A DNA stretch of 64,000 nucleotides from an uncultured Candidatus Saccharibacteria bacterium (GCA_964618625.1 CAZUBI010000001.1:332266-396265); one strand, 5' to 3'; shown: positions 7,929-38,353, numbered from the stretch's first letter. Notes: generated by a model not told the origin, from the letters alone. Translations and numbers: made by a program.

Positions 7929-8444
7929 TTATTCTACTTTGTATTGTGCCTCTCCATCTTTAATACCTTCTTTAGCTTTAAGAAAAGCCCACTTCGGAAT
8001 TTGTGGTGATTTATTATTCAACTTATCTCGTTCTGTGCATAGAGTCTTTAGATTTTCCAGCAAGCTCTCATCTGTTTCTAAATCTACATCGATTTCACCA
8101 AAAATCCGAGAGCGATTTCTAAGATTATTATAGCGATTTCCTGCATTGTGATGAGTAATTGCTTTTTCGTTAGGATTTATGAATGTTGAAACAGCACTAG
8201 TTGTAGAAACAATAATTGCTAAAAGCCCAGCAACAATTTGATGATTATTAAATTGAGACAAGGCAGAAGCCCCTGCGATTGCTGCCATTATTGAAACAGA
8301 TACACCAATCCATAAATGGAAACTTGCCCAAGATTGAGCAGCATAAAAATGTCCCTTGGAGGAATATAAAGAATCTTCTTCTATTCTTTTTGCTTCTTTT
8401 ATTATTTTTTCCTTAGTTTCCATATACTGGGAATTTATTTCCAA
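7929..8444 (-). CDS. SLATT-like two-TM effector protein
   Basis: 171 aa: an N-terminal helix, two TM helices (SFHLWIGVSVSIMAAIAGASAL and IVAGLLAIIVSTTSAVSTFI) and a C-terminal region HHNAGNRYNNLRNRSRIF. It overlaps the upstream nucleotidyltransferase gene by 32 nt. Confidence 0.45.
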   Translation of the reverse strand: MEINSQYMETKEKIIKEAKRIEEDSLYSSKGHFYAAQSWASFHLWIGVSVSIMAAIAGASALSQFNNHQIVAGLLAIIVSTTSAVSTFINPNEKAITHHNAGNRYNNLRNRSRIFGEIDVDLETDESLLENLKTLCTERDKLNNKSPQIPKWAFLKAKEGIKDGEAQYKVE

Positions 8445-9279
8445 AAATTTGTCTCCATAAATTTATCGCTTTTTCATGATCATTGCTGTCCCCATAAGTA
8501 TAGTACCATGCATCTCGTGCTTTATCTCTCGCTGTTTCAAGCCTCTTTACTGCTTCATTTCGCTTATTGTAATCAAGATAGTTGTCAATATAATCTCCTT
8601 CATGCCAAAAAGATAATTTTACCAATTCCATAGCCTTGTCGAAATATTGAAAGATATTCCACGGATAATCAGACAATTTGCCACTAAAAATTTTCAATGC
8701 AATAACCTCAATATGAAATGATTGAAGAAATGAGCTATGCTGGTGATTCCACCATTTTATCATTTTTACAATTCTCTTAAAGAATTCACCGCATACCTTA
8801 TTTTTATCGCTCATTGCCGTAGAGTGTTTACGTGGCCTTGATTGAATCCATGTTTCATTATTCATGTCTGGAACACTATAATAATTTACACTACCATCAT
8901 TGTTCGTAGTGCGAGATACTGGAACAATATCTACATTAGGCCATGTTTTGTAATGAAGTGTTACGGCTTGTCCATTCTTGCGAACATTCGTTTTATACCC
9001 TGCAAGTGTATCACGAACATTTTGGAGTATTTGAGAAGGTTTCTTGTTTTCTATATGTTTACCATAATGCAAAACTACAATCACATCAAGATCAGCATAT
9101 CCTTTTACTGCCGTATATCTAGGAATGGAACCAGAAGTAAATGCCTCAATTATTGTGAAGTCATTTTCTAATGATGATATAATATCGTCTTTTCTTTTGT
9201 TTGCTATATCACGATGATTTCCTGTTAGCTCTATATTTTCTCGGAATTTATCAAAAGATACTGGTACAGTATAAGGCAT
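8413..9279 (-). CDS. SMODS / CD-NTase-like nucleotidyltransferase
   Basis: GS...[DE]h[DE]h motif: TSGSIPRYTAVKGYADLDVIVVL. A third acidic residue is in NVDIVPV. 288 aa. Confidence 0.6.
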   Translation of the reverse strand: MPYTVPVSFDKFRENIELTGNHRDIANKRKDDIISSLENDFTIIEAFTSGSIPRYTAVKGYADLDVIVVLHYGKHIENKKPSQILQNVRDTLAGYKTNVRKNGQAVTLHYKTWPNVDIVPVSRTTNNDGSVNYYSVPDMNNETWIQSRPRKHSTAMSDKNKVCGEFFKRIVKMIKWWNHQHSSFLQSFHIEVIALKIFSGKLSDYPWNIFQYFDKAMELVKLSFWHEGDYIDNYLDYNKRNEAVKRLETARDKARDAWYYTYGDSNDHEKAINLWRQIFGNKFPVYGN

Positions 9280-10387: not shown

Positions 10388-13300
10388 TTATATATCCAAA
10401 TTTCTTACTTTTTGGGCATAAGCTTGAATGAATTTTTTCCTTGGTAATACTTCTTTACCCATTAAAATATCAAATAATCTATCTGCCTCTTCTGCGTCTT
10501 CAATAGTAACTTGCTTCAAAACCCTCTTCTCAGGATCCATAGTTGTATCCCATAATTGATCTGGGTTCATTTCTCCTAACCCTTTGTATCGTTGAATAGA
10601 AATTCCTTTCATTAATTCTTCGTTGCTGCCATCAGAAAGTTCTTCTTTTTCTACAGCTAAAATAGCTTCATCTTTACCTTCTTCAACTAATTTTAATTTT
10701 CGCACCTTGGATTTGGAAAGCTTTCCCTTTTTTTCTTCAACTTTGCCTTGTATTTTTTCCAATACTTTTTGTTTTTCTGCCTCTGTATAGGCGTAATGAA
10801 ATTCTTTGCCTTTTTGAATCCGATACAGAGGAGGTTGCGCAATATAAAGATATCCAGCTTCAATAATTGGTCTGAAGTAGCGGAAAAACAATGTTAAAAG
10901 CAAGCTGCGGATATGAGCACCATCAGTATTATGAAGTAAAAATCCACCAGTACCAGCAACAAAATTTTCATCTTTTTTAACGGCAAAATCATAAACAAAA
11001 GGAATCTCCGTTTTAATCTTTTTTATTGAAGTTATTGGCAAAAGAACTGAATCACCAATGCGAATCTTTTTATAGCTACTTCTTCTCCTATCAGCTTTAA
11101 CAAGATAATTTTCTAATGCTTTGCTCCTCTTGTGATTTTTCCAAACATCTTTTAATCTCTCCAATTGACTAATTCCTTTAACCGAGATAAGACGTCCTGG
11201 ATAATTACTTCTTATCATTACCCCGTCTTTGCGCAGATGGTCTTTTGAAAATCGCATAGTACTTTCAGGAAAAATGCCAAGTTGGCGAAATAGCAAAACA
11301 ATACCGTCTGATAAATTTTCTGAGGCAGTGGTAAAAGTTAATTTTACATCTAATTTCTCTTTACAAGATTTTACAACAATACTTCCATCGCTTTCTAAGT
11401 AACCACGTAGGAAAGCTTGTTGAATTTTTGGATTGACACTAAAAATTTCCTCTGGAACAAACTTTTCATATGATTTCTTTCCCAAAAGCCCTAAAGATTG
11501 AAGGATTAATTTAAATTCATATGAATGAAATACTAATTGATTGTTGTTATCATTTCTTTTATCTATGAATGCTTTTGCTCCTAAAACATTATCTATGGCC
11601 TTAATAAGTTCTGGGCTATACAATTTTTTGTCTCTTCCTAAAGATAAAATAAAACGATTAGGGTTCTTTTTTTGAGACGCAAAACAACCATCGCCAATAT
11701 AAAAACCTAAGAGATAAGCAAAATCTTCATTAAGGTCAAATGCAACTTTGAGTTTTCGGGTGTGATTTTTAAAATAATACTCAATAGCATCGCTAGTTTC
11801 CAAACACGAAGATAAAGGAATGTATGCCGAAGCGTTTTTTAAAACTTTTTTTTCTTCTAAATTCAATCCCGTAAGATACTCTTTAAAAATTTTATAACGA
11901 GGCATAACATTATCAATCTTCAACTCCCATTGCTCTAATACTGTAGTATAAACTCCAATAGCTACCCCCAATCTTTTTCTCGATATTCCTTTTCCCTGAC
12001 GCCTTAATTGAAGTTTTTGCCAGTATTTAGAACTAATATCAATCCAAGCATCATTAGGAATAAACTTCATCTTTGAAGCCAGAACTTTTATTTGAATATT
12101 TTTTGCTTCTTCAGAATGTTTTAAAAGCGGGCTGATATCTATTTTTATCTTTTGATTTAACCGAGACATTGAAGCAGGAAAAACAATTCTGTCGCCAATC
12201 TTTAATTTTGTAGTTGGTACTGTGATAAAATTTCCATAACGATAAACAAACACATTATGGCATGAGGTTATTTTCATCTTATATCCATAGCGAGTTTTTA
12301 TCTCATAAAGGCTGCCTCTTAATGGATGACGTATTGTTTTTTCAATATCTCTTAAAGAAAAAGTTTTTTTGTCTAAATCACAAGCAAAAACCTGATATCT
12401 TTCTGTATCCTGACATTGGTTTTCTATAAATTCACCTGTTTTTACTAATTTTAATCTTTGTTGTTGTTTATCAAAAACAAAAATTGGCGTATCATAAGCC
12501 ACGCTATCAGCGTCAGTCATTATGACAATCTTATGATAACGAAGTTTATCAATATTAAAATCTTCACTTATTGCTGTTCCCAAAGCCACAATTAAAGCCT
12601 TTATTTCTTCGGAAGCCATCATTCTGTCAAAGCGACTTTTTTCTACATTCAAAATCTTGCCTTTTAAAGGGAGAATTGCTTGTGTGTTTCTGTTTCTCCC
12701 CATTTTTGAGCTATTATGAACAAATATACCACTTGATAACGCAAAATTATGTGTCCCTGGAACTTCTATATCGTAAACATCTATCTTTTCCTGTAATAGA
12801 ATTATTGATTTAATTCGATGATTATAATTAACGACTGCCTCATGTAATTTTTTCTCATCCCCTGCAAAAAATCTTTGGCAAATTGTATTATACCTTATAA
12901 GAGTTTTATCGTTTGTATTTTTTCTAATTAAATTATAAGAATCTTTATTAATTTTATTCTCCTTTTGATAAATTTCATACAAAACCTCTATGCATCTTCT
13001 TAGATATGTTTTGTTATAAGAAATTATCCTTTTTTTTCTAAATTCATCTGTCCATTGTTTTTTAGTCATTTCGGATCGCCAGTTTCTTAAATTTAAATTA
13101 TCCCATTGTTTCTTTGCTAATTCCGAATATTCCTTTTTCTTATCTGGATGATTTTCAAAGTATTCTTTAGTTCTTTTAGATTGTTTCTCTCTATTTTGCC
13201 AATCAGCCCAATATCTTTTTTGGGACTGATCAAGAATCTTTTTGCTTTTTGCCCTATATTCTGCATTGTTATTATAAAACTCCAAAAATTTTTGAGCCAT

Positions 13301-15361
13301 ATAGTTTTTGTACTCCTCGTTCTGCCATTGTTTCTTTGCCCTTTTGCTTAGCATCTTTTTCATCTCAGGCGTAGACATAATTTTTCTAATCTTTTCTCTA
13401 TACTCGATTGATTTGTGTGCTTGTCTGGCTTTTTCTATTACATCGGGGCGACGCAGAGTATGTTCTATATAATCATAATGGAGGTTCATATGCTGTTTGT
13501 AAGAAAATCGCTGAATGTTTATTGGATTATTATTTAATTTATTAAAATCTAAATGATGACGATGTTTTCCATCAGAAACTGAATAAATACCATTTTCAAG
13601 ATTAAATATATCAGCCAATATATGGGTATACATCCATTTCCTGGCTTTAGGGTCAAAGACCATTTCGTAACCATCTAAACCATATTTTCCTTGCCTCTTT
13701 GACACTTCTCGATAAAGAGGAGCAATGCTGTGTTGAGGAGTCAACTGAATAGCGGAAATATAACTACCATCAACTAATCTAAACCGATGATCAGGAGTAC
13801 AAATTAATTCCTCTCCATTGTCTAAAATAATTTTAATAACTTTTGTATTCTTTTTAGTCATCCTCGGGTCTAATATGGAAGCAATACCAATGTGTCCATT
13901 ATTCTGTATGGTGTAACAAAAATTTTTCTTGCCCTGCTTGTATTCTTTAATTAATGCTTTAAAAGAAAGATTACGTCCATCAGTTAATGCAATCTCTGTA
14001 TCTCCACTCCAACACCCGCCGGCAGAATCGCCCTCAACTATAAACAATTCTGATTCTTCTGCATTTTTTGAAATACAATCAGCTAATTTTCCAGGTAAAG
14101 TCATTCCTTCTAAAACCCCTTTTCTAAGAATATTCTCTCGAGCTTTTTTGGCAGCTTGTCGGGCTCGAGCGCTTAATAAAGATTTTTCAAGAATCCTTTT
14201 GGCGTCTTCCTTGTTGGCTTCTAAAAACTCTTTAAAGTTTTCCCCCACAACTTGTTCTACGGCAGTTCGCGCTTCTGGATTTCCTAATTTTGCTTTTGTT
14301 TGCCCTTCAAATTGAGGCTCTCTTAATTTTACACTGACTACGGTCACTAATCCTTCGCGAGTGTCTTCTCCACTAAAACCAATATCCCCATTTTTAAATA
14401 TTCCCTGCTCTTTGGCATAATCGTTTAAAGTTCTGGTTAATGCTGATCGAAAACCAGTCAAATGCATTCCTCCTTCTGGAGTATGAATATTATTAGCAAA
14501 AGCTTTTTCTGTACTCTCAGAATCATCGGTATAAAGCAAGGCAACCTCAACTAAAATTCCTTCTTTCTCTTGCTTGACATAAAAAATATTATTAGTTAAA
14601 CAATGAGCAGTTCTTGCCAAATATTGAACTAAAGTAATAATTCCGCTTTCAAAATAAAAAGTATAAGAAGGAAGAAGAGCGCTTTCTCTATTATCTTCAA
14701 ATTTAATTGTAGTACCTGATGTGAGATATGCCTGTTGTCTTAAATGATCAAGAATCTTTTTTGTATCAAACTTAATTTCTTTAAAGATTTCCGGATCTGG
14801 CTCAAAAATGATTTTTGTTCCAGATTTTTCGCATTTGCCTATTTTTTTAAGTTTTGTCTTTGGTTTTCCTCGATTATATTCTTGGCTATATAACATTCCA
14901 TCACGGCAGATTTCTGCTTGTAAATATTCTGAAAGGGCATTCACAACTGAAATCCCTACGCCGTGCAATCCTCCAGCTACTTTATAGGATTTTCCTCCAA
15001 ATTTTCCACCAGCATGCAAAGTACACATTACAGTTTCCAATGCTGATTTTTTCGTCTTTTTATGAATGTCCACAGGAATTCCTCTTCCATCATCTGTTAC
15101 AGCCACTTTATTTTCTTTCAATATCTGTACTTTAATATTTTTGGCATAACCACCCATTGCTTCGTCAATCGAATTATCTACACATTCCCAAATTAAATGA
15201 TGCAAGCCCTCGGGACCAGTAGATCCAATATACATACCAGGTCTTTTTCGAACCGGGTCCAATCCTTCTAAGACATAAATATCTTTAGCTGTGTAGGAAT
15301 TCTCCTCTATATTATTAAGAGAATCTTTAACTTTTTTTGTTTTTTTTACAGGTTTAATCAT
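10388..15361 (-). CDS. gyrB: DNA gyrase subunit B precursor containing two inteins
   Basis: GHKL ATPase N-terminus, the EGDSAGG motif, and IMTDAD...DGAHIRSLLLTLFFR. The mature length would be about 697 aa. The two inteins are 434 aa and 526 aa. Confidence 0.9.
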   Translation of the reverse strand: MIKPVKKTKKVKDSLNNIEENSYTAKDIYVLEGLDPVRKRPGMYIGSTGPEGLHHLIWECVDNSIDEAMGGYAKNIKVQILKENKVAVTDDGRGIPVDIHKKTKKSALETVMCTLHAGGKFGGKSYKVAGGLHGVGISVVNALSEYLQAEICRDGMLYSQEYNRGKPKTKLKKIGKCEKSGTKIIFEPDPEIFKEIKFDTKKILDHLRQQAYLTSGTTIKFEDNRESALLPSYTFYFESGIITLVQYLARTAHCLTNNIFYVKQEKEGILVEVALLYTDDSESTEKAFANNIHTPEGGMHLTGFRSALTRTLNDYAKEQGIFKNGDIGFSGEDTREGLVTVVSVKLREPQFEGQTKAKLGNPEARTAVEQVVGENFKEFLEANKEDAKRILEKSLLSARARQAAKKARENILRKGVLEGMTLPGKLADCISKNAEESELFIVEGDSAGGCWSGDTEIALTDGRNLSFKALIKEYKQGKKNFCYTIQNNGHIGIASILDPRMTKKNTKVIKIILDNGEELICTPDHRFRLVDGSYISAIQLTPQHSIAPLYREVSKRQGKYGLDGYEMVFDPKARKWMYTHILADIFNLENGIYSVSDGKHRHHLDFNKLNNNPINIQRFSYKQHMNLHYDYIEHTLRRPDVIEKARQAHKSIEYREKIRKIMSTPEMKKMLSKRAKKQWQNEEYKNYMAQKFLEFYNNNAEYRAKSKKILDQSQKRYWADWQNREKQSKRTKEYFENHPDKKKEYSELAKKQWDNLNLRNWRSEMTKKQWTDEFRKKRIISYNKTYLRRCIEVLYEIYQKENKINKDSYNLIRKNTNDKTLIRYNTICQRFFAGDEKKLHEAVVNYNHRIKSIILLQEKIDVYDIEVPGTHNFALSSGIFVHNSSKMGRNRNTQAILPLKGKILNVEKSRFDRMMASEEIKALIVALGTAISEDFNIDKLRYHKIVIMTDADSVAYDTPIFVFDKQQQRLKLVKTGEFIENQCQDTERYQVFACDLDKKTFSLRDIEKTIRHPLRGSLYEIKTRYGYKMKITSCHNVFVYRYGNFITVPTTKLKIGDRIVFPASMSRLNQKIKIDISPLLKHSEEAKNIQIKVLASKMKFIPNDAWIDISSKYWQKLQLRRQGKGISRKRLGVAIGVYTTVLEQWELKIDNVMPRYKIFKEYLTGLNLEEKKVLKNASAYIPLSSCLETSDAIEYYFKNHTRKLKVAFDLNEDFAYLLGFYIGDGCFASQKKNPNRFILSLGRDKKLYSPELIKAIDNVLGAKAFIDKRNDNNNQLVFHSYEFKLILQSLGLLGKKSYEKFVPEEIFSVNPKIQQAFLRGYLESDGSIVVKSCKEKLDVKLTFTTASENLSDGIVLLFRQLGIFPESTMRFSKDHLRKDGVMIRSNYPGRLISVKGISQLERLKDVWKNHKRSKALENYLVKADRRRSSYKKIRIGDSVLLPITSIKKIKTEIPFVYDFAVKKDENFVAGTGGFLLHNTDGAHIRSLLLTLFFRYFRPIIEAGYLYIAQPPLYRIQKGKEFHYAYTEAEKQKVLEKIQGKVEEKKGKLSKSKVRKLKLVEEGKDEAILAVEKEELSDGSNEELMKGISIQRYKGLGEMNPDQLWDTTMDPEKRVLKQVTIEDAEEADRLFDILMGKEVLPRKKFIQAYAQKVRNLDI
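10928..12505 (-). mobile_element. gyrB intein 2 (526 aa) with a LAGLIDADG homing endonuclease domain, inserted in TDAD|(V)DG
   Basis: It starts SVAYDT and ends FLLHN, followed by T+1. The LAGLIDADG motifs FAYLLGFYIGDGCF and FLRGYLESDGSI keep the catalytic Asp. Confidence 0.75.
12713..14014 (-). mobile_element. gyrB intein 1 (434 aa) with an HNH-type homing endonuclease domain, inserted after EGDSAGG
   Basis: It starts CWSGDTEIAL and ends FVHN, followed by S+1. The TPDHRF block B is present. The HNH region is GKHRHHLDFNKLNNNPINIQ...QHMNLH. Confidence 0.7.
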
Positions 15362-23326: not shown

Positions 23327-24463
23327 TCAAATTTTAATTGGCATTAAAATATAGGAAAAGCTATCATCAGATTTCCCATGAATCAAGCCGGGGTTAATTT
23401 CTTTATTTAACTTAATAATAATTTCATCTTCCTTAATTGAATGCAATCCATCTAATAAGAAATGATAATTAAAACTAATCTTCAATGGACTTCCACTTAT
23501 ATCTTTGGGGATAAGAACCGTATGGCTTTTCCCCAAAGAAGGGTCTTGAGCCTCAATAGCAATTTCCTTTTTCGATGGATTAAAATCAAACATAACGTCA
23601 TTTATCCTCCCACTAAATAAGCCAACAATTTTAACGGCCTCAATCAATTTCTTTCTATTTAAAATTGTCTGGTTTTCAAAATTAGACGGAATTATTGAAG
23701 AATATTTTGGATATTCAGCATTAATAAGCCTGGATATTAAACGAACATTATCTAATGAAAACTGAATTTGATTAGGTTCTGGAAAAATCTTTACTACACT
23801 ACCAATTTCCTCCATCTCCTCTTGAATAATTCTTAGAACTTCTTGCGCCGTTCTTAATGGAATTATTATTTCTAAATTATCTTTTATATTAGTTTTAATT
23901 TTCTGGGATAAAATATTCTTTTCTGCCAAACGAAAACTATCAGTGCCAACTAATTTAAAAACGCTTTTCGCAGTATTGTTTTCTAATTTAAATAAAATGC
24001 CATTCAATTCTGGTTTTGGAGAAGTATACCCAACACTCGGAATTACTTGCTCTAACGCTTCTTCAAGATCCCCTTTTTTTATTTCTATATATTTTTCTGT
24101 TTTTGTTTCTGGAATAATTGGAAATTCATCGGGATTTATTCCTTGAAAGGTTGTATTATAATTCCCACTTTTTACTGACAGAATATTTTTACTTTCTTCA
24201 ATTGTAATTCTTTCTTCTGATAAATTATTCAAAAACATAGAAAAAGTTTTTGCTGGAATGATAAATTTTCCTTCTTTCTCCACTTTTCCCGTGATAATTA
24301 ATTCAATTCCAATTTCCAAATCAGTAGCCAAAAGATGAAGCTTATTTTTATTTGTTTTTAAAAGAATATTACTCAAAATAGGAAGTGTAAGATTTTTCCC
24401 TGTAATTTTTTCTGCTAAATTAATAGATTTTTTAAAACTATCGACTAAAGTGATAAATTTCAT
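23327..24463 (-). CDS. dnaN: DNA polymerase III beta sliding clamp
   Basis: N-terminus MKFITLVDSFKKSINLAEKITGKN...LEIGIE; 378 aa. Confidence 0.85.
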   Translation of the reverse strand: MKFITLVDSFKKSINLAEKITGKNLTLPILSNILLKTNKNKLHLLATDLEIGIELIITGKVEKEGKFIIPAKTFSMFLNNLSEERITIEESKNILSVKSGNYNTTFQGINPDEFPIIPETKTEKYIEIKKGDLEEALEQVIPSVGYTSPKPELNGILFKLENNTAKSVFKLVGTDSFRLAEKNILSQKIKTNIKDNLEIIIPLRTAQEVLRIIQEEMEEIGSVVKIFPEPNQIQFSLDNVRLISRLINAEYPKYSSIIPSNFENQTILNRKKLIEAVKIVGLFSGRINDVMFDFNPSKKEIAIEAQDPSLGKSHTVLIPKDISGSPLKISFNYHFLLDGLHSIKEDEIIIKLNKEINPGLIHGKSDDSFSYILMPIKI

Positions 24464-26491: not shown

Positions 26492-26821
26492 ATGCTTAAA
26501 AAGAAAAACAGAATTACATCTTCTGTTACTTTTAAAGAGATTCTTACAAAAGGCAATACAAAAGAGAACGAGTGTTTTAAGATTATCTTCAAAAAGAATG
26601 ATTTAGACTATCCGAGGTATGGAATTGTTGTAAGCACGAAAAATAGTAAATCAGCTGTACAAAGAAATGCTTTAAAAAGAAGAATTAGAAATATACTCAA
26701 AGATTCTTTATTGGTTTTTTCAAAAGGATTTGATGCGGTGATTGTTACGAAGAAAAATTGTTTAAATACGGACTTTCAAAAGCTCAAGGAATCTCTTAAC
26801 AAACTATTAAGATTATTTTAA
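26492..26821 (+). CDS. rnpA: Ribonuclease P protein component
   Basis: It sits directly after rpmH. It is a basic 109-aa protein with an RnpA-like KRRIRN motif. Confidence 0.7.
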   Translation: MLKKKNRITSSVTFKEILTKGNTKENECFKIIFKKNDLDYPRYGIVVSTKNSKSAVQRNALKRRIRNILKDSLLVFSKGFDAVIVTKKNCLNTDFQKLKESLNKLLRLF

Positions 26822-26827
26822 TAAATT

Positions 26828-27520
26828 ATGAACATTTTTGAATTATTAATCTTTCAACCGCTATATAATCTTTTAGCCTTACTCTCTAATCTAACAATGG
26901 GTGATTTAGGGTGGGCTGTTTTAATTTTGGCGGCGATAATTCGTCTTATTATCTGGTCTTGGTATAAAAAAGCCATGGGGGATCAAAGAAAAATGGCGAA
27001 ATTACAGCCTAAGATTAAAGAAATTCAAAAGAAGTTTAAGAAGGAACCAATAAAGGGCAATCAGGAAGTAATGAAAATTTTTAAGGAAGAAAAAATCAAT
27101 CCTGGTAATTCTTTCTTTTTTATCTTTTTCCAAATGGCTATTTTTATTTCTCTCTTTATATTTTTTAAGCAAGCTATAGTTAATGATTGGGCCTTTTATC
27201 TCTATAATTTTGTTAAACTACCAGAACAAATAAATTATTTATTTCTTGGTTTGATTGATCTTAAAGCTCCAAGTCTTGCTCTTGCGATTATTTCAGCTTG
27301 CTTGAACTCCTTTTTGATTTTTATCCAACCAAGCTCAGGCCAGAACAAAGCAATGCTACTTGGCTTCCCTTTTATAATCTTATTTTTCTACCAGAGATTT
27401 CCTGCGATTGTTATTTTGTATTGGATAGGATTTACTTTAGTGAATATTTTGCAGGAATATATGACTAAGAAAGAAACGCTACGCCCAAATCAAGCATTGG
27501 AAACAAAAGTTATCAGCTGA
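26828..27520 (+). CDS. yidC: Membrane protein insertase YidC (short form)
   Basis: Position after rnpA, a polytopic membrane protein of 230 aa. Confidence 0.7.
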   Translation: MNIFELLIFQPLYNLLALLSNLTMGDLGWAVLILAAIIRLIIWSWYKKAMGDQRKMAKLQPKIKEIQKKFKKEPIKGNQEVMKIFKEEKINPGNSFFFIFFQMAIFISLFIFFKQAIVNDWAFYLYNFVKLPEQINYLFLGLIDLKAPSLALAIISACLNSFLIFIQPSSGQNKAMLLGFPFIILFFYQRFPAIVILYWIGFTLVNILQEYMTKKETLRPNQALETKVIS

Positions 27521-27522
27521 TC

Positions 27523-27996
27523 ATGGAAACATTAAAAGTAAAAACCTTTTTAGAAGAATTGCTTACAATTGTTGGTTTTGTAAATTTTGAGATTAGTACA
27601 CAAGAAAGCCCCCAAGATAAACTTATTCAGTTTTCAATTAAAACTGATTCAGAAATTAATTATAGCGGTCTTTTAATAGGACGCGATGGAGAAAATCTGC
27701 AGGCATTAGAATATTTATTAAATATCTTTTCAAAAAAATGTTTCAATGATTATCCCTGGAGAATTATCTTGGATATTAATAATTATCGGGCAATACAGGA
27801 GGAAAAATTAAGAGAATTTGCCAAGAAAGCGGCTCGTCACGTATCTTTATCAAAAAAAGAGATAGAATTACCGCCCATGAGAGCGCGGGATAGAAGGATT
27901 ATCCATTTAGAGATTGCTTTAAGGAGCGATGTATTTACAGAGAGTATTGGGGAAGGAAAAGAAAGGCATATTATAATAAAGCCGCAAGAGAAATAA
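27523..27996 (+). CDS. jag: Jag/KhpB RNA-binding protein (KH plus R3H)
   Basis: KH motif LLIGRDGENLQALEYLLN and an R3H motif (RRIIHLEI). It follows yidC. Confidence 0.7.
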   Translation: METLKVKTFLEELLTIVGFVNFEISTQESPQDKLIQFSIKTDSEINYSGLLIGRDGENLQALEYLLNIFSKKCFNDYPWRIILDINNYRAIQEEKLREFAKKAARHVSLSKKEIELPPMRARDRRIIHLEIALRSDVFTESIGEGKERHIIIKPQEK

Positions 27997-29134: not shown

Positions 29135-29503
29135 TTAGATCTTTTTTGACGATGTTGCAGATGTAAGTTTGGTTACAGATGTAAGTTTAGTCGCTGTTTT
29201 TATTGCTTTCTTAATAGGCGCTGGTGATTTTTGAAATGCATAGACAAGTATAACAGTTAAAGTGGCAATGGGCAAAATACTGGCAAATGGTATAAGGTCC
29301 AATGCTTGACCAATAAAAATCCATGTACCTCTTATTCCGCTGAGAAGTGTAATAACAAAGATATAAATGACGAGAGGCAGGACAATAATCCAAACAAAGA
29401 GGTTAATTCCGGGAATAAACCCCAAAAAGATTTCTATAACATCTTTGATAATGGCTGTTATAAGCAAGAATAAAAATATTGTTAAGCTCATTTTATTTTC
29501 CAT
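29135..29503 (-). CDS. Polytopic small membrane protein (T4SS cluster)
   Basis: 122 aa with three TM segments. Confidence 0.3.
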   Translation of the reverse strand: MENKMSLTIFLFLLITAIIKDVIEIFLGFIPGINLFVWIIVLPLVIYIFVITLLSGIRGTWIFIGQALDLIPFASILPIATLTVILVYAFQKSPAPIKKAIKTATKLTSVTKLTSATSSKKI

Positions 29504-29513
29504 AGAATAATAT

Positions 29514-31304
29514 TTATTCTTTTTTGAACTCTTCTTTAGCTTTTCTAATATCTATAAGTTGAGCTGGGTTTGAAGTAATAATTTGGTCTTCAGCATAAGA
29601 AGCGATAATCTGAATAGCAGCATGTTTGTCTTCTGCAAAAAAGAGACCTGTTCCAACAGAAGCTTGCAAAAGGATGGTCTTTTCCTGTTCTGTAAGATTT
29701 AAGGCTTTGCCTATAATATCAATATTGGCAGGTGATTGTCTTAGTAAAAGGGCTAAAGCAGAGTTGGTAATTAATGGTTTTCCATATGGCGAGCTTAAAG
29801 CGTCTTCTATATCCTGCGTAATAAAAGTTACTCCCATATAATATTTTCGTGCTCTTTTAACTAAACCAAACAAGAAAGAAGCGCTTTCTTCATGAGCTAA
29901 TAACCACCATCCTTCATCTATTATTACAATTCTTTTTCTTAAATCCTTTTTTACCATTGTCCATATGTAATTTAATACTACATACATGGCAATAGGCCTG
30001 AGTTCTTCTTCCAATTCCCTTACCCCAAAGACAACTAAACGATTGTTAATATTAATATTTGATGGTTGATTAAGGAAGCCAGAATAGCTTCCTCTAGTGA
30101 ATTTATAAAGTTTTGCAGCTAAATCTTCGCCTCCCTCTGTATTTTTAAGAACACTCTCTAGATCTTCCATTAATGGTAAATTTTTCTTTTCAGCGATATT
30201 TTCAGGAAAAATATCCCGACTTGCGTATGTTTGTACAATGGCTCTATCTAGCATAAGTTCTTCTTGAGGAGAAAGGCCTTTAAGCATTAACTTAATTAGG
30301 CCGATAAGATTTAAAATATGGTTGCGAAAAACTTCTTCACCAGTTTCTTCTTTTTTTACTGCAGGAAGTTCAAATGGATTAATATTATCATCAGAAGCAA
30401 CAGATATTTTAAAGTAGCTTCCGCTGATTGAATCAGCCAAGTATTCATATTCATTTTCCGGATCAATAATTAATACATTAGTTCCTAATAATAATGAACG
30501 AAGGATTTCTAATTTTATAGCATAACTTTTTCCTGCGCCTGTTTGGGCAAAAACTACCATATTGGCATTTGGCAAAACAAAGCGGTCAAAAATAATCAAG
30601 CTATTATTATGTAAGTTGACGCCATAAAGGATTCCTTTGTTTTCTGAAAGGTCTAAAGAAGAAAAAGGGAAAAGGGTTGAAGCTGGTTGTGAATTCAAGG
30701 GAGTAGTTAATAATAATCTATCTATTCCCAATGGTAAGGAAGATTCCATTCCTTCGAATTCTCTGAAGACAGTTGGTTTTGCGTAAATTAACTGCTGTTC
30801 TAGTATATTTTTGATTTTACTTTCTATTTTTATAAGCTCCTCCTTGTCATTGGCAAAAAAAGTAATATAAACACCCACTTCAAAAAGTTTTTCACTACCT
30901 TGCTGGACTGTATCTCTTAGTTTTTCAATATTACTTAAAGCAGCTTCTAATAAGGGGTTACGAACTAATCCTTTATCTGCCTCAATGCTTAATTGAGCTT
31001 GAATTTCCGCAGATTTTTTTCTTAAATTTCTTAAAACCTTATTAATGTTAAGTGGATGAAAGAAGATTGAGATATTAAAAGATTCATCTAAATTAATAGT
31101 TGAGGAAAACCAATTAGAGGCTAAATAATTTGGGTAAGTTAGGATAAAAAGAGTTGAACAATATTTATTTCCTAATTTGAGAAAGTTAGTATTAATTTCT
31201 AATCCAGCAGGGGAAATTAAGTCCTGAAGAGTAGAAACAGCCTGGGATTGGGCTAATATTTGCGGGTTTTTAGGTTTTCTTTTAAATAAATTTGGAAAAC
31301 GCAT
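29514..31304 (-). CDS. VirB4/TrbE-family T4SS ATPase, C-terminal ATPase portion
   Basis: Walker A FAQTGAGKS and Walker B VIIDEGWWLL are present. It is in frame with the upstream ORF, separated only by TAA plus one codon. Confidence 0.8.
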   Translation of the reverse strand: MRFPNLFKRKPKNPQILAQSQAVSTLQDLISPAGLEINTNFLKLGNKYCSTLFILTYPNYLASNWFSSTINLDESFNISIFFHPLNINKVLRNLRKKSAEIQAQLSIEADKGLVRNPLLEAALSNIEKLRDTVQQGSEKLFEVGVYITFFANDKEELIKIESKIKNILEQQLIYAKPTVFREFEGMESSLPLGIDRLLLTTPLNSQPASTLFPFSSLDLSENKGILYGVNLHNNSLIIFDRFVLPNANMVVFAQTGAGKSYAIKLEILRSLLLGTNVLIIDPENEYEYLADSISGSYFKISVASDDNINPFELPAVKKEETGEEVFRNHILNLIGLIKLMLKGLSPQEELMLDRAIVQTYASRDIFPENIAEKKNLPLMEDLESVLKNTEGGEDLAAKLYKFTRGSYSGFLNQPSNININNRLVVFGVRELEEELRPIAMYVVLNYIWTMVKKDLRKRIVIIDEGWWLLAHEESASFLFGLVKRARKYYMGVTFITQDIEDALSSPYGKPLITNSALALLLRQSPANIDIIGKALNLTEQEKTILLQASVGTGLFFAEDKHAAIQIIASYAEDQIITSNPAQLIDIRKAKEEFKKE

Positions 31305-31307
31305 ATT

Positions 31308-31988
31308 TTATTGGTTAAATTCTTCTGGAATATTTATCGACTCTCTTTCAAAAGCCTCTGGATTATATGAATTAAAAAATAATTCAATTAATTCTTTAGT
31401 AGTCAATGGGCGTGATTGTAATCCCATTCTGGTTAAATTTGTAATGATATTATTTTGTCTGATTATTAATTGTTGATAATGCTGGTTGAAATTTTCATCA
31501 GAAAGAGGGATTGTGGCGGAAAATGCCTGGTGTCTTAAATTAAGCAATGCTTTATAAGCTTCCAATATTTGGCTTAATGCGGTTCTTGGTTTGAACATAA
31601 TAGGGTCATAAGGCACTATTACATAGAACTTTTTTTTCATAATATTGTTTCCAGTAACAAGTCCTTTGATAAATGTATAATAATCCTCCCCCTGAAGTTT
31701 AAGCAGATTATTTGTTTCTTGGTCAATTCTTTCCCGAAGAAAATTTAAATAGGATTCAATATTAACGCGCCTAGAATGAGCTACAACTTGTAATGGAAAA
31801 TCTAAGTTATTTATAAGATTGCGCCAGCTCATTAACACAGAAGATTGTTCTTCTTCCGATTTTAAATCAAAATTTATACCTGACACTTCTAAAACTGAAC
31901 GGAGCGAACCGTTTTTAAGAATAATTACCCCCTTTCTAATTTGTTGAAGGGAAATAAGTGACTGGCTGCTGAAAGTTTCTTTGGGCAT
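31308..31988 (-). CDS. VirB4 N-terminal domain encoded as a separate ORF
   Basis: KGVIILKNGSLRSVLEVSGINFDLKSEEEQSSVLMSWRNLINNLDFPLQVV matches the CagE/TrbE/VirB4 N-terminal motif. Its stop codon is at 31308..31310, and the ATG of the ATPase ORF is at 31302..31304 in the same frame. Confidence 0.55.
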   Translation of the reverse strand: MPKETFSSQSLISLQQIRKGVIILKNGSLRSVLEVSGINFDLKSEEEQSSVLMSWRNLINNLDFPLQVVAHSRRVNIESYLNFLRERIDQETNNLLKLQGEDYYTFIKGLVTGNNIMKKKFYVIVPYDPIMFKPRTALSQILEAYKALLNLRHQAFSATIPLSDENFNQHYQQLIIRQNNIITNLTRMGLQSRPLTTKELIELFFNSYNPEAFERESINIPEEFNQ

Positions 31989-32405
31989 CTATTTATCTAA
32001 TATATCGGTTAATTGTTTAAGAGTTTTTTTGTCCAATTGTTTTTTAATCTGTGTTTTTACTGTAGGCTTAGGCTTTTGGGGAACAGAATAAGATATTTTC
32101 GAAAAAGTTTTTTCTTTTTTCCATAGATAGTATTTTGGAAGCCAAAAATGCCTGATTGCGGCCATAGCAAGCGTATAAATTGGAACGCTATGGATTTTTC
32201 CAAATGCAAGGGAAAAACCGATTGGAGCGAGAATTATTGCTAAAATTAACCAAAGCCATGATTTTAAAACAGAAAAAAGTAAAAGAATGAGTCCTCCAAA
32301 AGATAATAAAATCCATAATTGGGTAAAGGTAATCCAACCCATTAATTTTGTCTCCTCTTTTATAAACTGAGGTACTTGATAAGCCATATTTTTAAGCTTC
32401 ACCAA
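31989..32405 (-). CDS. VirB3-like small two-TM protein
   Basis: 138 aa with two TM segments. It sits immediately upstream of the VirB4 N-terminal ORF with stop/start coupling (TAGATG). Confidence 0.35.
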   Translation of the reverse strand: MVKLKNMAYQVPQFIKEETKLMGWITFTQLWILLSFGGLILLLFSVLKSWLWLILAIILAPIGFSLAFGKIHSVPIYTLAMAAIRHFWLPKYYLWKKEKTFSKISYSVPQKPKPTVKTQIKKQLDKKTLKQLTDILDK

Positions 32406-33279
32406 AAGGACTTTTCTTCTGATGTTTTTTATAAGGAATAGGCTCTTGAATAGTGGGGGTTTTTTCCTTTCTCTTTTTTTCTTCTTTTAATTTAACGTCA
32501 AGAATATATGGTTTTTCTTTCTTAGTTTTTACAAAAGTTTCTTCATCCTCGAATTCTTTTCCTTCACCACTCAAAACTTTAGAAGATGCCACTTCTCCCA
32601 TAGGTTTTTTTCCTAGCGGCTTTTTCTCTTCTTTAGGCAATGGCTTTTTTAAAGAAACCTTTTGCATTTCTTCAACAATCTTTGGTTGATCATTTTTTTT
32701 CTGCATTGCCGCTAATAGTTTTTCTCGAATTTTTTCTTGTTGTTCAGCAGAAACTTTTGGAGCAACGACTTTTTTTAATTCTTCTATCTTACTGACTGGT
32801 TTTTCCACTTTTACTTCAGATGGTTCAGGGAAAGAATATTCAGGAATAATTTGTTCAGAAGGTATTCGTTCTGCGATAGTTTGTTCAATTTTTTCTTTCG
32901 TAATAGGCTTTATCTTTGGGGGACCTAAAGGATCTTGCGGAATTCTTTGCTCTAAAGGTTGGGGTTTGTATTGACTCAATTCTTTTTCAAACATTTTAAA
33001 GATTTTTTCTTCAATTACTTTGTGAACAATTTGAGCCGCTATTGGAGGAATATTAATTCTTTTTTCTAACTCACCCCTGAATTGGTCTTTAGGCAATTGA
33101 AAAGATAAAGCTTCTGTTAGGATGTCCATAACTTCAGAAAATTTTTCAGATGAAACTTTACCTAAATTTAAAGCATCATCTATTATTACCCCCATTTTAT
33201 CAGAAGCCAAAAAATCCTGAATAGATGTTGGAAGTTTATTATACAATTCTAAGAATTCTTTTTTTTTCTTTTTTTCCAT
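32392..33279 (-). CDS. Lys/Glu/Pro-rich hypothetical protein (T4SS cluster)
   Basis: The track ORF extends to 33402, but the likely start is MEKKKKK at 33279. The sequence is low complexity. Confidence 0.3.
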   Translation of the reverse strand: MEKKKKKEFLELYNKLPTSIQDFLASDKMGVIIDDALNLGKVSSEKFSEVMDILTEALSFQLPKDQFRGELEKRINIPPIAAQIVHKVIEEKIFKMFEKELSQYKPQPLEQRIPQDPLGPPKIKPITKEKIEQTIAERIPSEQIIPEYSFPEPSEVKVEKPVSKIEELKKVVAPKVSAEQQEKIREKLLAAMQKKNDQPKIVEEMQKVSLKKPLPKEEKKPLGKKPMGEVASSKVLSGEGKEFEDEETFVKTKKEKPYILDVKLKEEKKRKEKTPTIQEPIPYKKHQKKSPFGEA

Positions 33280-33295
33280 TTTTCTTACTATAGAA

Positions 33296-35476
33296 TTAAC
33301 GTAGCAGTTCCCTGAAAAAAGGATTTCTATTGAATCTTTTATTCCTAAGGTAATCTTTAGCATCTTTTTGTGGTCCGATTTTTCGTTGTACAGACTCCAC
33401 AAATTCTTGCACCCATTTTGTTTGTTTTTCAGTATTCATTGGCCTAATCATAGCAGCAAAGCCTTCAGGGGGAACATTCTTATCCAAAAGAGAGTGGAAG
33501 AATTGATCGCTATATTGCGTACCCATTTTTTCTAATCTGCCAAGGATGTTATCCCAATTCCCTGATTTTATAGTTTCAGGAGAAGACTCCCGTACCCTTT
33601 TTGAAATAAGATTTATCTCAACACGTTTTCTGGCCTCGTTATCAGAAATTCCTGGCATACTTTTTCTAATTTGTGTTAATTCTTTGTTCATATCTTCAAA
33701 CGTTGTAAAGAATTTTACATAAAGTTCAGGGTGAGCTTTTTTAAGTCCCGGAACGTTCAAATTAGGTTGATTTTGGGCTATTTGAAGAAATTTTGTATCT
33801 TTTTCCGTTTCCAATTTGTTTTTTTCTATTAGAGCGTTAAGACCTACAGCAATTCTTCCTCTATCACCTTTATGTACTTCCATATCAGCCCTAATTTGAT
33901 CTGGGCCTCTTCCTTTATAATCTTCTTCAATTTGTTTTAGTTCAGTTGCTCGAATTTTTCCAGGCTGCCTACTCATCCAAACCCCTATGTCATGTGTAGG
34001 TGCAAATTTGCTGCTTTCTAATTTTTCTTGAGCTTTTCTCCATGTTTCTGAGCCCGTGACTCCTTTTAATGCTTTATAACCAATAAAGGCGCCAGCTGCT
34101 GCTCCAGCCTTAGTGGCTTGTTTCATAACTAATTGAGATGCTGCTCCACCTCCTTGAAGAGAGAAAATCAATCCTCCAACCAAAAACATAGAGAATAAAA
34201 CCATCTGTATTATTGTTGCGGCCATTGGACTTTCAGTACCAATTGATGGCATCTTATTCATTACTGTTAAAGCAAGGTATAAAGTGAATGCAAATATTAC
34301 AGGGAAAAAACACCATTTTAGGAAATTGCTCCACCACATTTTCCAGTACTTTTCTGTGTCAGGAAAAATCCAAGCTGCGAAAACAATTGGCGATAATCCT
34401 AGAAGGATAATTATTAAAAGGTTCCTAACGATTATGGTCAAGAAAATCGCTAATAAAGCAATGACAGCAAAGCCACCAACGAGAATCATAATAAAGCTGA
34501 TAATAAAGAAATTACCAAGGCGCAATGAATAGCTTTTTACTTCTTTTTCTGGGTCCTCATCGCTAATTATCCCTGTTGTTTTATATTTATCAACACCAAA
34601 TATAGAAGGAGGGTCATATTGGCCAATTATGCCAGGTGTTGTGGTTGCAACATAACCATAGCCTTCCATTATACGAGGGGCAATGCTTTCATTATTTTCT
34701 TGAGAAATGCTTAAGAAATATCCAGTAAGATAATTGGAAATATCTACAATCATTCCTGCTATAACTAAGCTAAAGTTTACTAATAAGGCAACAATTATTA
34801 ATTTCCAAAGAATTTGTTTCCAAGCGTATTTTTTATAGCCAACTATAGTAGCAATAGCAATACCTATGAATCCTAAAACTAAAAGAGCATTTACAATATT
34901 GCGTAACATTGTCCATATTGTTTGAACTCCGGGATTGTTAATAAACCCGCCATAGGTGTCGGGCTTTAATGCTTTTAATATCCAGTCTATTTCCAAATTT
35001 ATTATCCCGGCAAACATTTTACCAAAACCTTCTAATACACCCTTTACAATAAAACACCATTGTTTAACAAAAAACCCTTGCATTTCGCATACGAATTTAT
35101 TTGTTCCGTCGTCCATGCATTTGTTTATCCAGTCATTAGCGCTTATATTGCAAATTTCCTCAGCGTTCTTTTCTTGAAGTGTAACTTTTACTGTATGAAG
35201 GCCGTGTTGTCCGACTTGAGTGGTTCCAGCATCAGGGTCTGGAATACAACATTTAGGTTTTCCAACGCCAGAAGGACAAATTAGGGAGTTGTCCTGAACA
35301 TAGCCTGATTTACATGATATTTTGTTCGCCTCACAATAACCTCCTTGCGATTCACATGTTTGGTCATTTTCATCAGCATTTGCTTCAGGAGTTGTAAATT
35401 TTAAAATAGGGCTAATTAGCAAAGCAAAAACCACGATGCTAAAAATCCCGATTTTTAATATATTTTTTGTTTTCAT
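33296..35476 (-). CDS. VirB6/TrbL-like polytopic membrane protein with an N-terminal secreted Cys-rich domain
   Basis: The track ORF starts with GTG at 35563. The ATG at 35476 gives a signal peptide MKTKNILKIGIFSIVVFALL. There are at least six TM helices and a Cys-rich region CESQGGYCEANKISCKSG...KPKCC. Confidence 0.5.
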   Translation of the reverse strand: MKTKNILKIGIFSIVVFALLISPILKFTTPEANADENDQTCESQGGYCEANKISCKSGYVQDNSLICPSGVGKPKCCIPDPDAGTTQVGQHGLHTVKVTLQEKNAEEICNISANDWINKCMDDGTNKFVCEMQGFFVKQWCFIVKGVLEGFGKMFAGIINLEIDWILKALKPDTYGGFINNPGVQTIWTMLRNIVNALLVLGFIGIAIATIVGYKKYAWKQILWKLIIVALLVNFSLVIAGMIVDISNYLTGYFLSISQENNESIAPRIMEGYGYVATTTPGIIGQYDPPSIFGVDKYKTTGIISDEDPEKEVKSYSLRLGNFFIISFIMILVGGFAVIALLAIFLTIIVRNLLIIILLGLSPIVFAAWIFPDTEKYWKMWWSNFLKWCFFPVIFAFTLYLALTVMNKMPSIGTESPMAATIIQMVLFSMFLVGGLIFSLQGGGAASQLVMKQATKAGAAAGAFIGYKALKGVTGSETWRKAQEKLESSKFAPTHDIGVWMSRQPGKIRATELKQIEEDYKGRGPDQIRADMEVHKGDRGRIAVGLNALIEKNKLETEKDTKFLQIAQNQPNLNVPGLKKAHPELYVKFFTTFEDMNKELTQIRKSMPGISDNEARKRVEINLISKRVRESSPETIKSGNWDNILGRLEKMGTQYSDQFFHSLLDKNVPPEGFAAMIRPMNTEKQTKWVQEFVESVQRKIGPQKDAKDYLRNKRFNRNPFFRELLR

Positions 35477-35520
35477 ATTAATGATTTTTATATTTTTCTT
35501 ATTATAATTACACAATTTTA

Positions 35521-36339
35521 TTATACAATATTTTTGATTAACAAGGAAGAAAGAGAAATCCACTCTTTTATGGAAAGATTTTGCGCCCTGGTATTTGAGG
35601 GAAGATTTAATTTTAAAAATATTTTTTGAACAAAATCTTTTTCTAAATTTAGATTTTTAGAGAGGTTATTAATAAGCAGTTTTCTTGGTTGTTTAAAACC
35701 AGCCTTTACAATACTAAAGAAATTTTTGGTTTGTGTTCTATTCATGTTCTCTTTTGTATCCATTGGAGTTATTCTCACAACAGCAGAGTCTACTTTAGGT
35801 TTTGGATAAAAAACGGTTTTTGAGACATGACAAATAATTTCTGATTTTGCATAAAATTGCACCGAAGTAGATAGAAGATTCATTTTTGGTGGTTGGGCCA
35901 TTATTCTTTCAGCCACTTCTTTTTGTATCATTAAAACTATTAGCTTGGGTTTGATGGATTTTTCTAAAAGTAAACGCAAAAGTCGCGAAGTTAAATAATA
36001 AGGAATATTACCTATTACTTTGTATTGAGTGTTGAGTATTGAGTATTGAGTATAAAATTGATTAGTTTTTAGAAGATTGCGAATATCTGCGTTGATAATC
36101 TGTAGGTTCGATTTATTCTGAAAAAGGTCTTCAAGGAATTTTACTAATTTAATATCTTTTTCAACAGCAATTATTTTAGCGTCAGTTTTCAAAAGGACTT
36201 TGGTTAAAACGCCTTTTCCGGGTCCAATTTCCAAGATTTGATCTTTGGATTTAATATCTGCTGCCTGGATAATCTTTTGCACAACATTATTGTCTTTAAG
36301 AAAAACTTGCCCTAATTTTTTTTGTTTTTTTGTTATCAT
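35521..36339 (-). CDS. rsmA: 16S rRNA (adenine1518/1519-N6)-dimethyltransferase
   Basis: LGQVFLKDNNVVQKII...ILEIGPGKGVLT, i.e. a SAM motif I. Confidence 0.85.
   Translation of the reverse strand: MITKKQKKLGQVFLKDNNVVQKIIQAADIKSKDQILEIGPGKGVLTKVLLKTDAKIIAVEKDIKLVKFLEDLFQNKSNLQIINADIRNLLKTNQFYTQYSILNTQYKVIGNIPYYLTSRLLRLLLEKSIKPKLIVLMIQKEVAERIMAQPPKMNLLSTSVQFYAKSEIICHVSKTVFYPKPKVDSAVVRITPMDTKENMNRTQTKNFFSIVKAGFKQPRKLLINNLSKNLNLEKDFVQKIFLKLNLPSNTRAQNLSIKEWISLSSLLIKNIV
36005..36032. repeat. Heptamer microsatellite (TTGAGTR)x4 inside the rsmA coding sequence
   Basis: The sequence reads ttgagtg ttgagta ttgagta ttgagta. It encodes the insert QYSILNTQY. Confidence 0.5.
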
Positions 36340-37276: not shown

Positions 37277-38353
37277 ATGCCATCATCCTTATTAAAGATA
37301 GCAATTGGTTTATTTTTGCTTTCTTTATTTTTTGGTAATTCTTATCTTTCTTCTCAAATTATGTTTCTTCAAAAAGAAGGGGAAGAGTTTTTAATAAAAG
37401 AAGACGGCTACCCCGTGATTTTAGAAGGTAGTGCATTTACTAAGACGGCTTATGCCTATCATGAATATTTGAGCGTGGAAGGAGGTCAAATTATTGAGGG
37501 GGATTTTGAAACGGATAATTTAGTAGAACAGAATTTTTTAATTATTATCAACAGCGATAGTTTTTTGGGCATTAATTCTCCTATAAAATTTTTATTACCT
37601 TCATCTCAACGTTATACAGTTTTTACCTACATAGTGCAGGAAGGAGATACACCTGGAAGAATTGCGGCAAATTTTGGAGTAAGTTTAAATACAATTTTAT
37701 GGGCTAATAATTTAAAATCCAGCTCTATAATTAAACCTAATCAGGAGCTTATTATTCTTCCAATTTCAGGAGTAATGCATATAGTTAAAAAAGGGGACAC
37801 ATTACTTTCTATAGCTAAAAAATACAGAGCATTATCTGATGATATATTTGTTTTTAATGATTTAAAAGATGAAGGTTCTATAAAAATCGGTCAAGAACTT
37901 ATTATCCCAAATGGCCGGCTTTCTTCAGCCACTTCTTTATTATTATCTGCCGGTCTTAAACCTATGACAATTGATATTAGCAATTGGCCAAAGACTGACG
38001 GTTTTTTTGCTTATCCTACTTCTTTCGGTTTGAATAGAGGAATTTTCCACTATTACAACGCAGTTGATATTGTTAGTTCCTGCGGAAGCCCTATTTATGC
38101 TGCTGCTGATGGAATGATAGTTGAGGCTAAAGGAACAGGAAGATATAATTACGGTTATGGTAATTTAGTTAAGATTCAACATTATAACGGCACCACGACT
38201 GTTTATGGTCATCTAAGCGAATTATCTGTAAAAGAGGGAGATAAGGTTTATCAAGGAGATTTAATAGGGAAAATGGGCAATACAGGAAATGCTGAAGGTT
38301 GCCATCTCCATTTTGAAGTTAGAGGAGCTCAGAATCCTTTTGTAAAAAGATAA
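37277..38353 (+). CDS. LysM-domain peptidase M23 (peptidoglycan endopeptidase)
   Basis: Two LysM repeats (YIVQEGDTPGRIAANFGVS and HIVKKGDTLLSIAKKY) and a C-terminal M23 domain with HLHFEV. Confidence 0.75.
   Translation: MPSSLLKIAIGLFLLSLFFGNSYLSSQIMFLQKEGEEFLIKEDGYPVILEGSAFTKTAYAYHEYLSVEGGQIIEGDFETDNLVEQNFLIIINSDSFLGINSPIKFLLPSSQRYTVFTYIVQEGDTPGRIAANFGVSLNTILWANNLKSSSIIKPNQELIILPISGVMHIVKKGDTLLSIAKKYRALSDDIFVFNDLKDEGSIKIGQELIIPNGRLSSATSLLLSAGLKPMTIDISNWPKTDGFFAYPTSFGLNRGIFHYYNAVDIVSSCGSPIYAAADGMIVEAKGTGRYNYGYGNLVKIQHYNGTTTVYGHLSELSVKEGDKVYQGDLIGKMGNTGNAEGCHLHFEVRGAQNPFVKR

Follow-up and report, generated by a model that had tools for sequence, protein, structure and literature searches.

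Two adjacent open reading frames in a Patescibacterial T4SS cluster very probably encode an old, two-gene VirB4

Two open reading frames (ORFs) with the hallmarks of the T4SS ATPase VirB4 follow one another on the minus strand of the 64,000-nucleotide stretch of DNA analysed here (the window), with a single codon between the stop of the first and the start of the second, and both in one frame. This arrangement raises the question of whether a single virB4 gene has been interrupted or whether two genes have always stood here side by side. An earlier note on this DNA, made from the sequence alone, described a VirB4 ATPase split into an N-domain ORF and an ATPase ORF by one in-frame TAA, and it listed a recent nonsense mutation, a sequencing error, a genuine two-piece VirB4 and a stop-codon readthrough site as possible explanations.

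Re-reading of the sequence confirmed the elements on which that description was built, namely: a 226-aa ORF ending with TAA at 31308-31310, one AAT codon, an in-frame ATG and a 596-aa ORF, with Walker A and Walker B motifs located inside the latter (Table 1). On the minus strand the junction reads ...GAA TTT AAC CAA TAA AAT ATG CGT TTT..., where TAA occupies 31310-31308, AAT 31307-31305 and ATG 31304-31302, and stop and start share one frame. For any short spacer, the prior for a shared frame is one in three. A Shine-Dalgarno sequence was looked for ahead of the ATPase gene and is absent. Since the same is true of most genes in this 32%-GC window, its absence is uninformative either way, and for the same reason initiation 3 nt past a stop codon is unremarkable in this genome.

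Table 1. Coordinates of the two VirB4-related ORFs, their junction and the surrounding genes within the window.
Feature	Position	Strand	Basis or remark
dnaN	23327-24463		
dnaA	24713-26095		
rnpA, yidC, jag	26492-27996		
T4SS pilin (VirB2-like), 127 aa	28008..28391	minus	PF18895 E 1.1e-07, 32.2 bits vs cut-off 26.6
Protein with N-terminal hydrophobic segment, 232 aa	28414..29112	minus	
Hydrophobic protein, 122 aa, directly 3' of the ATPase gene	29135..29503	minus	No Pfam/NCBIfam family match
VirB4-family ATPase piece, 596 aa	31304..29514	minus	ORF call, Pfam, NCBIfam, PDB match
Walker B RIVIIDEGWW	29904..29933	minus	Residues 458-467 of the 596-aa ORF
Walker A AQTGAGKSY	30522..30548	minus	Residues 253-261 of the 596-aa ORF
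Junction: TAA stop and 3-nt spacer AAT ahead of the ATPase ATG	31305..31310	minus	
TrsD-like gene, 226 aa	31988..31308, stop included	minus	ORF call
PrgI-family (VirB3-like) small membrane protein	31989..32405	minus	PF12666 E 3e-05, 24.9 bits, just under gathering score 27
Lys/Glu-rich protein, 336 aa as longest ORF	32392..33402	minus	No Pfam/NCBIfam family match
Large polytopic membrane protein, 755 aa, weak VirB6/TrbL and CD3337/EF1877-like candidate	33296..35563	minus	PF04610 E 0.0047, NF046089 E 0.0016, both below cut-off; tentative
ksgA	35521-36339		
LysM-M23 peptidase, beyond ksgA	37277-38353		

The 596-aa ORF belongs to the VirB4 family by its domain content. Pfam returned P-loop_TraG (2.7e-25, 89 bits), AAA_10 and DUF87, and CagE_TrbE_VirB over residues 44-171, with the P-loop C-terminal domain spanning residues ~243-577. 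Among the NCBIfam models, NF045971 (VirB4-like, CD1110 family) is matched at 352.4 bits against a cut-off of 325, over positions 184-729 of 752, and TIGR00929 is matched below its cut-off (123 vs 643). In the PDB, the ORF matches the VirB4 C-terminal domain structure 4ag5 with an E-value of 5.2e-37, and it matches TrwK (E 1.2e-05) such that TrwK residues 446-734 pair with residues 248-543 of the ORF. Judged by this offset, ~200 residues are missing from the N-terminus of the 596-aa ORF, about as many as the upstream protein has.

Features by which a VirB4 is recognized are present at this locus: a P-loop C-terminal domain with Walker A and B motifs that is homologous to solved VirB4 domains, a score above a curated VirB4-family cut-off, and a neighbourhood of T4SS inner-membrane genes (PrgI/VirB3, together with weak TrbL and CD3337 matches) and a pilin gene. 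A complete N- and C-domain on one chain of ~750-830 aa is not found in the 596-aa ORF; positions 3-119 of the CD1110 model lie on the separate 226-aa ORF. Together, the two ORFs supply complementary parts of a full VirB4, and they do so in the order of the single-chain protein. It should be noted that the division does not run between an N-domain and an ATPase, as the earlier note had it. CagE_TrbE_VirB represents the VirB4 N-domain, and because it covers residues 44-171 of the 596-aa ORF, the break falls within the VirB4 N-terminal region. The 226-aa ORF holds only the first part of that region (~3-123 in the NCBIfam VirB4 models).

The nature of this smaller protein was less apparent from standard searches. 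A scan of the local Pfam library gave no match for it, with neither PF26593 nor PF27097 returned there, and PDB sequence searches with two profiles of the small protein gave chance matches only. These empty searches would suit the idea that the 226-aa protein is an unrelated accessory protein which merely happens to be encoded upstream of a short VirB4. They are set against several independent observations. Three NCBIfam models of full-length VirB4 are matched by the ORF over ~120 positions at their N-terminal end, namely: the CD1110 family (3-119 of 752), TIGR00929 (19-123 of 792) and VirB4_plasma (102-233 of 894). The first ~183 positions of the CD1110 model are missing from the 596-aa ORF. 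Precomputed Pfam families for homologues of the small protein and for the locus of a fused orthologue (see below) are PF26593 (TraC-like) and PF27097, and the 226-aa protein is also collinear with the N-terminus of that fused orthologue.

Structure prediction pointed the same way. An AlphaFold (AF2) model of the 226-aa protein built from a 118-sequence alignment reached a pLDDT of 88.8; a first run had a shallow 12-sequence alignment and a pLDDT of 47.5, and was therefore left unused. In a Foldseek search of the PDB with the model, the top 14 matches are all R388 TrwK/VirB4 chains (E 5e-4 to 7e-3) and the next match has an E-value of 0.3, so that the significant fold matches are to TrwK/VirB4 only. 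The match to the TrwK fold, though specific, is a moderate one, with TMq up to 0.47 over up to 196 aligned columns, the region of TrwK that is aligned not being given. We conclude that the 226-aa protein is a separate protein homologous to the first ~200 VirB4 residues, and that an unrelated accessory protein is extremely unlikely.

The name that best fits this protein comes from the TrsD/TraD family. It is matched by model NF041427 with an E-value of 4.4e-10, at 39.7 bits against a curated cut-off of 200. Because this score is far under the cut-off, the protein is to be regarded as a remote TrsD/TraD relative only and not as a curated member. Its layout is that of TrsD/TraD, i.e. a stand-alone protein of ~200-230 aa encoded directly upstream of a VirB4-like ATPase, and its remote homology to the N-terminal portion of VirB4 is seen in the three VirB4 models, in the fused orthologue and in the fold matches.

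The fused orthologue just mentioned was found with a profile of the small protein, which was searched against 1.84 billion cluster representatives at E<=0.001 and gave 2595 matches. Among the best 150 of these, all are 110-443 aa in length except one of 797 aa (P0127). At 43% identity, residues 1-214 of P0127 pair with 1-215 of the 226-aa ORF, and at 55% identity its residues 226-796 pair with 22-591 of the 596-aa ORF. The contig that carries it is Patescibacterial, with PrgI, the VirB4 gene and a small ORF followed by jag, yidC, rnpA, dnaA and dnaN, and at this locus (L019) PrgI sits at the same position as in the window. P0127 provides, by alignment, a simple Rosetta-stone argument for TrsD and the short VirB4 working as a single functional unit, of which the two ORFs of the window are the collinear halves. 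With 1 of the best 150 family representatives fused, the split form is the rule and the fused form the exception.

The existence of a fused relative is, together with the shared frame and the single codon between stop and ATG, what would speak for a recent nonsense mutation, i.e. pseudogenisation of a single-chain VirB4. Such a mutation calls for intact single-ORF orthologues and a lesion confined to one lineage. What we found when the orthologues were compared is the reverse, a split that is the rule. The 226-aa protein has 482 homologues in a collection of 5.8 billion proteins, and the best 120 of the 482 are all stand-alone proteins of 212-229 aa (63-100% identity) from Patescibacteria/Paceibacteria MAGs. 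The C-terminus of the protein, PEEFN[QK], is kept at the same position in the orthologues. The position of the stop is unchanged in orthologues with as little as 63% identity, both proteins are intact at full length, and the downstream gene keeps its own ATG and N-terminus. In addition, the same split is common to Firmicute plasmids (see below), and the fused form is confined to the one representative among the best 150. Taken with these data, a recent nonsense mutation retains next to no probability.

A false stop created by a sequencing or assembly error has nothing in its favour beyond the in-frame arrangement itself. The identical 226-aa sequence occurs on 7 contigs drawn from ncbi, lgn and ena sources, and five other genomes (L001-L005), at 92-96% identity, have the identical TAA-AAT-ATG junction. 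Because independent assemblies agree, an assembly error is untenable, and the probability that we attach to it is practically nil.

We tabulated the junction itself at 16 loci in other genomes, these five included, which were taken from a scan of one genome per species. The same two-gene pair is present at all 16, with a spacer of 1-15 nt. Outside the five close relatives, the spacers in the 11 more distant orthologues measure 1, 4, 4, 5, 7, 7, 11, 11, 11, 12 and 15 nt; 9 of these 11 are out of frame and 2 are in frame, where about 3.7 would be expected. The 15-nt in-frame spacer holds a second in-frame TAA. The stop codon of the upstream gene is TAA at 14 of the 16 loci, TGA at 1 and TAG at 1. 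By contrast with this variation between the genes, the downstream ORF is always 595-601 aa long where the contig is long enough, and its N-terminus, of the type M-[RKA]-[FL]-P, is conserved across loci. Because only 2 of the 11 distant orthologues are in frame, the frame relation seen here is no more than chance would give, and the shared frame of both genes in this window is incidental. The pattern is characteristic of two genes that are each translated on their own and kept under purifying selection.

The same junctions bear on programmed readthrough or recoding, by which a fused VirB4 of ~824 aa would be made besides or instead of the two pieces. In the window and in the five close relatives, no stop interrupts the in-frame spacer, and P0127 shows that a fused protein is viable. 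A conserved recoding site would be expected from such a mechanism, and none was found at the junctions of the 16 loci. Frame is not under selection (9 of 11 distant orthologues out of frame), one of the in-frame spacers contains a second TAA, and the identity of the stop codon varies; a conserved, in-frame, stop-free continuation with a conserved stop context is thus lacking among these loci. The downstream gene also has its own conserved ATG and N-terminus. Readthrough of this kind is very unlikely. A weaker version of the idea, to which we give only a very slim chance, is that occasional readthrough of the TAA in the in-frame sub-clade might give a minor fused isoform of ~824 aa; more broadly, repeated splitting and fusion of VirB4 here could mark the N-terminal part as an autonomous module, the stoichiometry of which is tuned independently of the ATPase hexamer.

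Reassignment of the stop codon was considered separately and rejected: TAA, TGA and TAG all occur at the junction among the orthologues, and the ORFs of the window are normal with table 11.

Taken together, the varying spacers, frames and stop codons and the conserved ends of both proteins leave no room for a recent nonsense mutation, for an assembly error or for a conserved readthrough site. Of the explanations listed in the earlier note, the genuine two-piece VirB4 is borne out, by the stand-alone homologues and by the two-gene layout in 16 genomes; the nonsense mutation, the sequencing error and the readthrough site are contradicted by homologue lengths, the 7 contigs, spacers and stops. 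That note had named orthologues which are consistently two genes with an intergenic spacer as the outcome that would tell against it, and the comparison of orthologues returned this outcome. The picture of a gene split by a single in-frame TAA is accordingly misleading, as there are two old genes that happen, in one sub-clade, to be in frame.

The stop codon of the PrgI gene abuts the ATG of the TrsD-like gene, and the T4SS cluster listed in Table 1 reaches from the pilin on one side to the large membrane protein on the other, with dnaN, dnaA, rnpA, yidC and jag next to the former and ksgA next to the latter. A scan of the larger ORFs of the window returned neither a coupling protein nor a relaxase. 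The close homologues are all from Patescibacteria MAGs. In Paceibacteria, the T4SS adjoins dnaA, dnaN, rnpA and ksgA, and a relaxase is usually absent (PMC12102498). The layout described in that study is present in the window, i.e. VirB4, TrsD, PrgI/VirB3, VirB6-like and pilin genes on the chromosome with dnaA, dnaN, rnpA and ksgA nearby and, among the scanned ORFs, without an adjacent relaxase. The cluster is a chromosomal, origin-proximal T4SS of a Patescibacterium, of the Paceibacteria type.

We therefore consider it very probable that the two ORFs are a genuine and evolutionarily old two-gene VirB4 of a Patescibacterial T4SS, made up of a TrsD/TraD-like piece and a piece with the remainder of the N-domain and the P-loop ATPase. 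In such a two-gene VirB4, the upstream gene would encode the equivalent of the first ~200 residues of canonical VirB4, and the downstream gene the rest of the N-domain and the hexameric P-loop ATPase domain. Each polypeptide would be translated on its own, and translation of the second probably begins by tightly coupled initiation, 3 nt past the stop codon. To judge from VirB4 in the R388 T4SS structure, the pieces may then come together, without a covalent bond, as a VirB4-like unit. If they are arranged as in TrwK of R388, the TrsD-like piece would lie close to the membrane and face VirB3/PrgI, and the 596-aa piece would form the ATPase ring. A unit assembled in this way would energise the assembly of the T4SS, pilus or channel, and the transfer of substrates.

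The result matters mainly for annotation. The junction should not be flagged as a frameshift, a pseudogene or a recoding site, and the upstream 'hypothetical protein' is better named a TrsD-like VirB4 N-terminal-domain protein. The locus also adds one further instance of the essential-looking, origin-proximal T4SS of Patescibacteria.

When compared with canonical single-chain VirB4 proteins (TrwK of R388, the CD1110 family, PrgJ and TraC), the ORFs of the window jointly cover the whole protein, and their summed length of 822 aa is close to the 823 aa of TrwK. The window form differs in being made as two polypeptides, which are divided within the N-terminal region.

A parallel is found on plasmids. 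A tblastn search against plasmids matched the small protein in 190 records, mostly conjugative Firmicute plasmids. On a Pontibacillus plasmid, a 274-aa gene runs 11 nt into a 621-aa gene for a 'VirB4-like conjugal transfer ATPase, CD1110 family'; this pair is 29% and 31% identical to the pair in the window, and its cluster comprises pilin, large membrane protein, small protein, split-VirB4 and peptidoglycan-hydrolase genes. On L. plantarum pL125-4, a gene annotated as trsD (219 aa) stands ahead of one for a 671-aa DUF87 ATPase. The Firmicute TrsD/TrsE pairs (staphylococcal pGO1/pSK41) and TraD/TraE pairs likewise have a protein of ~220 aa encoded directly before an ATPase of ~620-670 aa in which the beginning of the N-domain is missing. 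These Firmicute TrsD/TraD systems are plasmid-borne conjugation machines with a relaxase and a coupling protein, whereas the system in the window is chromosomal and a relaxase was not detected in the scanned ORFs.

The closest counterpart is the Patescibacterial T4SS itself, in which TrsD is described as a remote homologue of the VirB4 N-terminus that is encoded adjacent to virB4 (Quinonero-Coronel et al., Microb Genom 2025, PMC12102498). In that survey TrsD is the most abundant T4SS component of Patescibacteria, with 2272 homologues of which 1664 are associated with VirB4; its function has not been determined experimentally (PMC12102498), and Wang et al. 2023, as cited in PMC12102498, count a TrsD homologue among the essential genes of Ca. 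Southlakia epibionticum. The geometry of the junction is not discussed there; the in-frame spacer of 3 nt in the window is, by the comparative data, incidental. In components and in chromosomal neighbourhood the window is the same as the published system and differs from it in nothing substantive, and the two-gene arrangement is one that has already been described, both for Patescibacteria and for the pGO1-type systems of Firmicutes.

Among the best 150 of the 2595 family representatives, only P0127 is a fused protein, in which the TrsD-like and VirB4 parts form one natural chain with the junction peptide ...NPATIEKRGEVIGRQGMGGVASIEDVV... Its locus, L019, has the same origin-proximal synteny as the window. 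About one quarter of the TrsD-like representatives listed from the 226-aa profile search are 280-443 aa long, for example P0137 (432 aa), P0154 (443 aa) and P0205 (417 aa), and consist of an N-terminal TrsD-like region followed by a C-terminal extension. Partial fusion, a truncated gene call or a separate type of architecture could each explain these longer representatives.

Most genes of the window, including housekeeping genes, are preceded by AT-rich leaders (window GC, 32%). For most genes, again including housekeeping ones, no recognisable Shine-Dalgarno motif was found window-wide in the 30 nt upstream of the start codon.

Features of the window and of the locus of the fused orthologue
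Feature	Location	Strand	Evidence
Methyltransferase protein, 615 aa; D12-class N6-adenine and N6_N4 DNA methyltransferase domains	window 1810-3657	-	domain matches
SMODS nucleotidyltransferase-domain protein, 288 aa	window 8413-9279	-	domain match, E 3.9e-21
GyrB, 1657 aa	window 10388-15361	-	domain matches
LysM + Peptidase_M23 protein	window 37277-38353	+	domain matches
T4SS_pilin-domain protein, 488 aa	window 60577-62043	-	PF18895, residues 60-124, E 8.9e-09
P0127, naturally fused TrsD-VirB4, 797 aa	L019 544-2937, contig CAZTUR010000004.1	+	profile search and locus

GyrB is about twice the normal length. Two stretches with Intein_splicing matches both lie inside residues 969-1478; residues 1314-1367 form a LAGLIDADG homing-endonuclease domain. 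As the DNA_gyraseB match ends at residue 409 and the Toprim match is seen only at 886-953, the domain layout suggests that a second large insertion, perhaps another intein, may occupy residues ~410 to ~885. Elsewhere in the window, the SMODS protein may be part of a CBASS-like defence module, and the methyltransferase protein may be a fused double methylase.

The 488-aa protein, whose T4SS_pilin domain sits N-terminally, is a second pilin-domain protein and by far the bigger; its gene lies ~30 kb away from the T4SS cluster and adjoins a solute-binding protein gene. The gene that encodes the LysM + Peptidase_M23 protein is located immediately past ksgA as seen from the cluster. In Patescibacteria, LysM and Peptidase_M23-type domains are found with VirB1 homologues (PMC12102498), and this protein is thus a candidate cell-wall hydrolase of the T4SS.
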